A DNA stretch of 64,000 bases, from sequence record OR677401; one strand, written 5' to 3'. How positions within the stretch are numbered: the stretch's first letter is position 1; every line of letters starts with the position of its first letter. The notes below the pieces were generated by a model. The model had not been told where the DNA came from and did not search any database. It saw only the letters and a list, made by a program, of their open reading frames with translations. A program made the translations under genes and the position numbers. Positions 346 through 594 of this stretch are shown piece after piece. Origin of the DNA: Escherichia phage LQ5.

Positions 346-381
346 GACCTATCAAAACAACAGAGTGAAATGGAGAATAAA

Positions 382-594
382 ATGAAACTTTCTAACCAAG
401 CAATCAACATGTTAAACGAAGTTCGTGCAGCTGGTGCTAAATGCCTGATGGTTAACACTCGTGACGGTGACCTTCGTCAAGCATTTGGTGAATTGAAATC
501 TGCTGACCTGGTTAAATGTTCAGTTGGTATTGGTAACGCACTTCGTGTATCCTTATCCCCTAAAGGTAAAATGTACTTTTTCAACAAAAAGTAA
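382..594 (+). CDS. hypothetical small protein
   Basis: ATG 382 with GGAG 7 nt upstream; ORF track 304..594 trimmed to RBS-supported start. Confidence 0.6.
   Translation: MKLSNQAINMLNEVRAAGAKCLMVNTRDGDLRQAFGELKSADLVKCSVGIGNALRVSLSPKGKMYFFNKK

Follow-up and report, generated by a model that had tools for sequence, protein, structure and literature searches.

The window analysed here (the whole stretch of 64,000 nucleotides from Escherichia phage LQ5, record OR677401) belonged to a T4-like myovirus of the genus Dhakavirus and was 98.7-99.4% identical to Escherichia phage QL01 in the two regions tested. The + strand was the reading direction of the genes around both sites considered below, and the gene order ran from the e-region genes, nudE, e, ipIII and denV to nrdC.11, nrdC.10, nrdC.8 and nrdC.6. 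Site 1 was the promoter-leader cassette in front of ORF70 and site 2 the one in front of nrdC.10 (Table 1). The initial annotation had called the genes behind this pair unrelated, and we found no homology between the ORF70 and nrdC.10 proteins (best E 0.036 over 28 aa). Similarly, the two genes behind a second repeat pair, nrdC.6 and a DUF7570 gene, had no protein homology. Since the partner proteins were not homologous, neither pair of repeats represented a gene duplication. No Rfam family reached the threshold anywhere in the 64-kb window.

Table 1. Positions of the two cassettes, their genes and related elements in the window.
Feature	Position	Strand	Basis
Site 1 cassette: -35 GTGTACA 316-322, TG 336-337, -10 TACTAT 339-344, leader, ORF70 start	316..384	+	sequence
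Predicted stem-loop over the -10 box: AGGTCTATAG 323-332, loop, CTATAGACCT 341-350	323..350	+	MFE -15.4 kcal/mol
Site 1 leader, ~31 nt, AAAACAACAGAGTGAAATGGAGAATAAAATG, nrdC.10-type leader family	354..384	+	identity to nrdC.10 leaders
GGAGAATAAAA: Shine-Dalgarno GGAG 372-375 inside putative RegB/S1 target	372..382	+	11/11 match to T4 consensus
ORF70 (70-aa gene; PHROG_6001; RB69 ORF102c family)	382..594	+	QL01 annotation, PHROG match, homologues beside nrdC.10 in three other genera
IpIII module, gene region 3101-3780, with 23-nt direct repeats of the promoter 5' half at 3078-3100 and 3781-3803	3078..3803	+	
regB endoribonuclease gene	6659..7117	+	Pfam REGB_T4, E 6e-69; PHROG endoribonuclease
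Terminator-like hairpin AGGAACCttcgGGTTCCT (13550-13567), then T run; upstream of the site 2 promoter	13550..13573	+	
Site 2 cassette: -35 (G)TTTACA 13593-13598, -10 TATTAT 13615-13620, leader 13630-13660, nrdC.10 start	13592..13660	+	
GGAGAATATAA: Shine-Dalgarno GGAG 13648-13651 and putative RegB/S1 target	13648..13658	+	10/11 match to consensus
nrdC.10 (326 aa, AAA-type NTPase-like), the site 2 gene	13658..14638	+	
Second pair, copy 1: ribosome-binding context TGAGGAAATTATT, ATG, nrdC.6 codons 2-5	15620..15651	+	
Second pair, copy 2: same ribosome-binding context TGAGGAAATTATT, ATG, DUF7570 gene codons 2-5	23433..23464	+	

The leader repeat originally noted at 361-384 and 13637-13660 was real. 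Namely, GAGTGAAATGGAGAATA(A/T)AATG had exactly two copies in the window, at 363-384 and 13639-13660, which matched at 21 of 22 positions, and 100 shuffled sequences contained no copy of the motif, although up to three mismatches were tolerated. In a self-BLAST of the window, the first pair extended to 342-384 versus 13618-13660 (43 nt, 88%, E 1.6e-7). Moreover, the two cassettes gave a colinear, gap-free alignment that began at the -35 element and ended with the ATG, with 51 of 69 positions identical. Positions 342-354 of the 43-nt match were not specific to this pair because the promoter core that they cover was generic in the window. When GAGTGAAATGGAGAATA was used as an exact motif to scan IMG/VR, Dhakavirus was the only genus with matches among T4-like genomes: two copies were present in QL01, IME281, IME341 and phage 005, and one in JS98 and VR5. 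The few remaining matches were in unrelated contigs without promoter context. A 19-mer, TGAAAT(N)GGAGAATAWAATG, was rejected as a diagnostic marker, being a generic ribosome-binding context that also occurred in about 45 contigs of unrelated viruses.

As had been proposed, early promoters were located directly upstream of both repeats, and they were of the T4 type. The site 1 promoter had the form GTGTACA-16 nt-TG-n-TACTAT at 316-344, with the 16 nt separating GTGTACA from the -10 box, and that of site 2 consisted of TTTACA, 16 nt and TATTAT at 13593-13620. Both possessed a TG ahead of the -10 box and an A-rich run upstream. The TACTATAGACCTATCA core, found at 339-354 in site 1, corresponded to the -10 hexamer and start-site region of one early-promoter family and was identical in seven cassettes. 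With up to four mismatches it had 14 sites on the + strand (7 of them exact) versus 2 on the - strand. This family fitted the published T4-group PeSL consensus TTTACW..TAYWAT and also agreed with T4 early promoters, which have been described as UP/-35/TGn/-10 promoters that contain further conserved positions. A generic sigma-70 scan supported site 2 only and missed the site 1 promoter (8/12 match); its overall matches were no commoner in the window than in shuffles. The predicted stem-loop over the site 1 -10 box had a z-score of -2.8, and an equally good folding was obtained in 1 of 200 shuffles. On the other hand, the leader RNAs of sites 1 and 2 were not predicted to fold better than shuffles (z -0.18 and +1.31), and a riboswitch or attenuator reading of the leaders was rejected because there was no structure beyond shuffles.

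A different type of stem was predicted elsewhere in the window. In the cassettes at 3791-3849, 6602-6661, 14992-15049, 22371-22432 and 56218-56277, the spacer between the -35 and -10 elements was complementary to the Shine-Dalgarno sequence of the leader. Examples of the pairs were ATCTCCTGTAG..CTACAGGAGAT and TTCTCCTCATG..CATGAGGAGAA, with G-U wobbles in 14992-15049, and the predicted stems had energies of -17 to -21 kcal/mol (z -3 to -6). Such a hairpin would form in read-through RNA only and not in RNA started at the cassette's own promoter. The same hairpin logic, with compensatory changes, was seen upstream of denV in many T4-like genera.

ORF70 homologues were present in 137 phage records, a single copy in each. 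In the four non-Dhakavirus genomes examined for synteny, the gene was located between nrdC.11 and nrdC.10 (Mosigvirus PhAPEC2, contig L036 and Mosugukvirus PM2) or directly after nrdC.11 (Gaprivervirus VR20). In Dhakavirus, it was in the e region, 13 kb from nrdC.10. The adjacent ORF70 and nrdC.10 genes of PM2 had -10 and leader segments that were identical at 54 of 55 positions, and the VR20 ORF70 leader, ACTGAGT..AAATGGAGAATAAAATG, resembled ACTGAGTgAAATGGAGAATATAATG of Dhakavirus site 2. VR20 also provided an empty site corresponding to site 1, where a single 59-nt promoter cassette lay between the 960-nt gene and a 228-aa gene that retained the TGAGGAAAATATTATG start region. No second cassette was found downstream of ORF70 at site 1, contrary to a simple mini-circle integration. 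Two differences near site 1 were set aside. In Escherichia phage 005, the 960-nt gene was separated from the site 1 promoter by an insertion (L026 779-1429), namely a 216-aa ORF without a Pfam match, which was rejected as evidence of shuffling since it had no flanking cassette repeats. The 11% of window positions 1-3000 that was absent in Bp7-type phages fell within the e.2 gene (1535-1864) and was unrelated to site 1.

Comparison of the cassette flanks in related genomes, which the initial annotation had suggested, uncovered chimeric single cassettes and cassette-bounded indels. The nrdC.11/nrdC.10 junction contained an 84-aa gene in IME341 and an unrelated 76-aa gene in JS98, each between two promoters. 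The nrdC.10 gene of the window had one promoter, and this was recombinant: at the 5' side it matched the first of the two IME341 promoters, and at the 3' side the second. Likewise, Mosigvirus ATK47 and L035 lacked ORF70 and carried single cassettes that were chimeric between the two L036 cassettes, with the crossover at the -10 box in one and inside the GGAG-ATG box in the other (L035). A second cassette-bounded indel in the window was the IpIII module, in place of which Bp7 had one cassette and no IpIII. A further leader type likewise stood in front of unrelated genes from different genera: in IME341 (L033 1137-1180), the extra 84-aa gene had the leader aaataaatgaactgaaac..GGAGATACAAAATG, which was closely similar to the Tequatrovirus motA leader aaataaatgaactgaaacGGAGATTAAAATG (L020, YUEEL01).

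It has previously been reported that the T4 RegB nuclease, stimulated by host S1, cuts inside the GGAG of early mRNAs, that its full target is single-stranded and 11 nt long (T4 consensus GGAGAAUAAAA, degenerate form GGAGRAYARAA), that the targets are mostly Shine-Dalgarno sequences, and that flanking sequence stimulates the reaction (Durand et al. 2006, PMC1702504). Judging from the sequence, the 3' 13 of the 22 nt, GGAGAATA(A/T)AATG, are a class consensus made up of the Shine-Dalgarno, the RegB/S1 target GGAGAAUAAAA and the start codon. Position 9 of the site 2 box was a U instead of the purine of the degenerate consensus. GGAG preceded the ATG by six nt at both sites, and both boxes were single-stranded as far as folding prediction could tell. 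The strict degenerate GGAGRAYARAA pattern occurred 3 times in the window versus 0.36 expected, and GGAGA followed after 5-8 nt by ATG occurred 14 times on the + strand, in 10 cases directly behind early promoters. Moreover, GGAG(A/T)AATAAAATG was kept before nrdC.10 in nearly all orthologues (71-99% protein identity, several genera sampled). The product of the window's regB gene is expected, by analogy with T4, to be the trans-acting cutter of these GGAG boxes. A single consensus ribosome-binding context, which the initial annotation had named as grounds for refutation, was largely sufficient for the second pair but covered only these 13 nt of the first.

The initial annotation had also assigned both genes an N-terminus beginning MEN(K/I)M, as if a translated extension travelled with the promoter and became fused to unrelated proteins. 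An in-frame ATG was indeed present at 370 and 13646, and the string ATG GAG AAT A(A/T)A ATG occurred at both sites and in the VR20 ORF70 leader. However, this ATG was missing from the nrdC.10 leaders of JS98, VR5 and all other genera compared; the JS98 leader, gagtgaaGGAGAATAAAATG, was 2 nt shorter, and yet the protein behind it was 98% identical. A shared N-terminal module would need a conserved upstream ATG with a usable Shine-Dalgarno, but this ATG had only a weak GAG 4 nt before it, whereas GGAG stood 6 nt before the second ATG. In the QL01 annotation, both genes began with the final ATG of the repeat, equivalent to 382 and 13658, and the PHROG_6001 profile began at residue 6 of the protein started at 382. 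Such an extension is therefore scarcely credible, and the MEN(K/I)M N-terminus was rejected: the codons GAG AAT are the Shine-Dalgarno and spacer, and the true starts indicated by these comparisons are ATG 382 for ORF70 and ATG 13658 for nrdC.10. This corrected the starts of two genes, both of which would be extended in a naive reading. The identity of the first pair ended at the true ATG, so that this pair carried no co-copied codons; the proposal of cassettes copied together with first codons stood only insofar as regulatory cassettes act as recombination joints.

The 5' half of the leader told a different part of the history. The 31-nt site 1 leader was 87% identical to that of Dhakavirus nrdC.10, 84% to that of Mosigvirus nrdC.10 and 88% to that of Tequatrovirus ip6, versus at most 60% for the other early leaders of the window. 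The extra 9-mer GAGTGAAAT was located where RegB/S1 requires no specific sequence, and its chance match was estimated at about 7e-4 over 91 leader pairs. Judging by these identities, the 5' half is shared by common descent and marks a homologous leader family. No single donor could be named since site 1 was as near to Tequatrovirus ip6 as to Dhakavirus nrdC.10. If early genes simply all need GGAG, an A-rich spacer and ATG, the repeat could have arisen by pure convergence, with neither shared ancestry nor cassette movement. Consistent with this, 13 of the 22 nt were the published consensus plus ATG, and nrdC.10 retained GGAGAATAAAATG in all genera, which pointed to selection; part of the identity of the first pair can be convergent because the 19-mer recurred in unrelated viruses. 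Nevertheless, pure convergence is unlikely, as the identity continued 9 nt upstream of the sequence required by RegB/S1 and into the 5' leader, the other early leaders of the window did not reach it, ORF70 and nrdC.10 were adjacent with shared leaders in PM2, and the chimeric cassettes documented recombination at exactly this junction.

Selection might instead act on the 5' half itself if (A/T)GAGTGAAAT was kept as a leader-specific operator for a trans-acting co-regulator, such as a RegA-like repressor or a small RNA. A GAAAT-like stretch 5' of GGAG did recur before nrdC.10 in Tequatrovirus, Mosigvirus and Dhakavirus, and the effect of flanking sequence on the RegB reaction (Durand 2006, PMC1702504) would be in line with such a role. 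However, the stretch differed in length and sequence among genera and in JS98, VR5 and L035, and neither an Rfam family in the window, nor a predicted structure, nor a candidate factor was found, which makes an operator very unlikely.

The preferred reading was that sites 1 and 2 are cassettes of the PeSL type. According to the published description, the early promoter of a PeSL is strong and of the sigma-70 type (TTTACW..TAYWAT in the T4 group), a stem-loop lies within or close to it, and the 3' end carries a Shine-Dalgarno with ATG; many copies occur in hyperplastic regions, chimeric cassettes are found at indels, and experimentally mapped crossovers are located between -10 box, Shine-Dalgarno and ATG (Arbiol 2010, PMC2839356; Comeau 2014, PMC4122927). 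By their sequence, both sites are PeSLs. The site 1 unit spanned 304-381, from the stop codon at 301-303 to ATG 382, and site 2 comprised the terminator and promoter up to ATG 13658. The promoter elements were TGTACA/TACTAT and TTTACA/TATTAT, respectively; the stem-loop was that at 323-350 in site 1 and the terminator-like hairpin at 13550-13567 in site 2; and the 3' ends consisted of GGAG (372-375 and 13648-13651) with ATG. Clustering was reflected in the 14 versus 2 strand bias of the core and in repeats of 20-57 nt that linked cassettes, and cassette-bounded indels were represented by the nrdC.11/nrdC.10 junction (QL01, IME341 and JS98; L036, ATK47 and L035) and by IpIII versus Bp7.

We consider the following four-step scheme for PeSL-type early-gene cassettes of a T4-like phage to be probable as a whole. 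Judging from the promoter consensus, the host sigma-70 RNA polymerase would start about 7 nt past the -10 box. The resulting leader of about 30 nt would be single-stranded and present GGAG six nt before ATG 382 or 13658. Given T4 biochemistry and the presence of regB, GGAGAAUA(A/U)AA in this leader would be the target of RegB with host S1, and cleavage would, a few minutes after infection, inactivate these early mRNAs. The remaining identity was shown by comparative genomics to be common descent: ORF70 and nrdC.10 are neighbours in other genera, where both have the promoter-leader in front of them, one copy per gene. When two such copies recombine, the gene in between is deleted, inserted or moved. 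Dhakavirus ORF70, with its nrdC.10-type leader in the e region 13 kb away, would have been moved, in a direction that we infer, and Dhakavirus nrdC.10 retains one chimeric cassette. The modular shuffling that had been suspected in this hyperplastic region was thus supported by the chimeric cassettes at indels, and its mechanism has already been published as PeSL shuffling.

It is conceivable, though doubtful, that the cassettes go further and are complete portable expression insulators in which an RNA control box doubles as a DNA recombination arm. The string of RegB/S1 box, Shine-Dalgarno and ATG would then provide microhomology for exact ATG-to-ATG gene swaps, and the L035 crossover fits such a swap. 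Moreover, a promoter spacer complementary to the Shine-Dalgarno would restrict both the translation of the gene and its cleavage by RegB to transcripts that start at its own promoter, while read-through RNA would stay silent. If this was true, each small gene would be an autonomous unit working wherever it was inserted, as ORF70 does 13 kb from its usual neighbour.

The second pair had a different character. As stated in the initial annotation, TGAGGAAATTATTATG preceded both genes (at 15622 and 23435), and the repeat was longer than reported: 30 of 32 nt were identical, including codons 1-5 (MSQAI). However, it could not be upheld as a mobile cassette copied with first codons. GAGGAAA followed after 4-7 nt by ATG occurred 12 times in the window versus 0.8 expected, so the nucleotide identity was mainly this generic ribosome-binding context. 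MSQAIKNVLNSF was conserved across many genera in the DUF7570 family, MSQAIN(Q/E)IRSEV was conserved in the nrdC.6 of two genera, and 2 of the 4 shared codons differed at synonymous sites. A recent codon-carrying copy was rejected since MSQAI was conserved within each family and the proteins were unrelated. We read this pair as a generic ribosome-binding context combined with what appears to be an old or chance resemblance of five residues. The window had two ribosome-binding classes on its + strand, the promoter-proximal GGAGA..ATG (14) and GAGGAAA..ATG (12).

T4-type nrdC.6 had a different N-terminal 58 aa and an upstream MSVVIN mini-ORF. In Tequatrovirus PP01 (L235 465-524), a 19-codon upstream ORF, MSVVINNVNAVIKSLVNKK, with a strong ribosome-binding site had a stop that overlapped the annotated nrdC.6 start (ATGA). 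This ORF resembled the MSQAIN start of Dhakavirus nrdC.6, the first 58 aa of which could not be aligned to the T4 type.

Shared first codons were observed elsewhere in the window. Three otherwise unrelated genes, at 3170, 4307 and 4675, had the start MKTY(K/Q)EFI in common, and the latter two shared 12 identical codons. The shared first codons of the T4 internal-protein genes encode a functional capsid-targeting peptide, and MKTY(K/Q)EFI presumably matches this N-terminus. By analogy, first codons are truly shared in this case, and they have a function. In addition, an identical 15-nt stop/ribosome-binding/start junction, GAGGAAATCTAAATG, was found at 45112-45126 and 45307-45321. It preceded two adjacent, unrelated small genes (64 and 46 aa), and both upstream genes ended in EEI.

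Taken together, the repeat is an instance from Dhakavirus in which PeSL shuffling and RegB-type leaders, both already known, are combined; as an example it is clear but ordinary. Its mechanism and its nuclease site have both been published, and it opens no new question. Its value is that it illustrates cleanly, at the level of coordinates, how small accessory genes are moved by T4-like phages. The promoter-leader cassettes serve here as both expression unit and recombination joint, one locus is found in several allelic states across genera, and the class consensus of the RegB/S1 box can be told apart from shared ancestry.

PeSLs have been described in RB49/phi1, T4/PST and KVP40/nt-1, and JS98 was mentioned in passing (PMC2839356; PMC4122927). 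In comparison to these, the genus here was Dhakavirus, one gene appeared to be displaced by 13 kb together with its leader, one Mosigvirus allele crossed over within the GGAG-ATG box, and several stems paired the promoter spacer with the Shine-Dalgarno. Similar to the RegB/S1 sites of T4 (PMC1702504), the window had an 11-nt, predicted single-stranded box of GGAG and an A-rich stretch that doubled as the Shine-Dalgarno, and regB was present. Unlike those sites, site 2 deviated at position 9, and cleavage in the window is expected from T4 biochemistry.

Hairpins that sequester the ribosome-binding site are known from e, soc, 49 and I-TevI of T4: a transcript started upstream has its Shine-Dalgarno paired, whereas one started inside the hairpin has it free (Uzan and Miller 2010, PMC3014915). 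Several cassettes of the window shared this geometry, but their embedded promoter was early, whereas the known cases have late promoters. Unlike in the T4 hairpins, the Shine-Dalgarno sequences of sites 1 and 2 themselves were not sequestered. Finally, in the T4 internal-protein locus, as summarised in a later paper, small non-essential early genes were swapped at conserved regulatory or N-terminal sequences (Repoila et al. 1994, via Comeau 2014, PMC4122927). While sites 1 and 2 differed from this summarised account in sharing no codons, the IpIII indel and the common MKTY(K/Q)EFI N-termini of the window resembled it.
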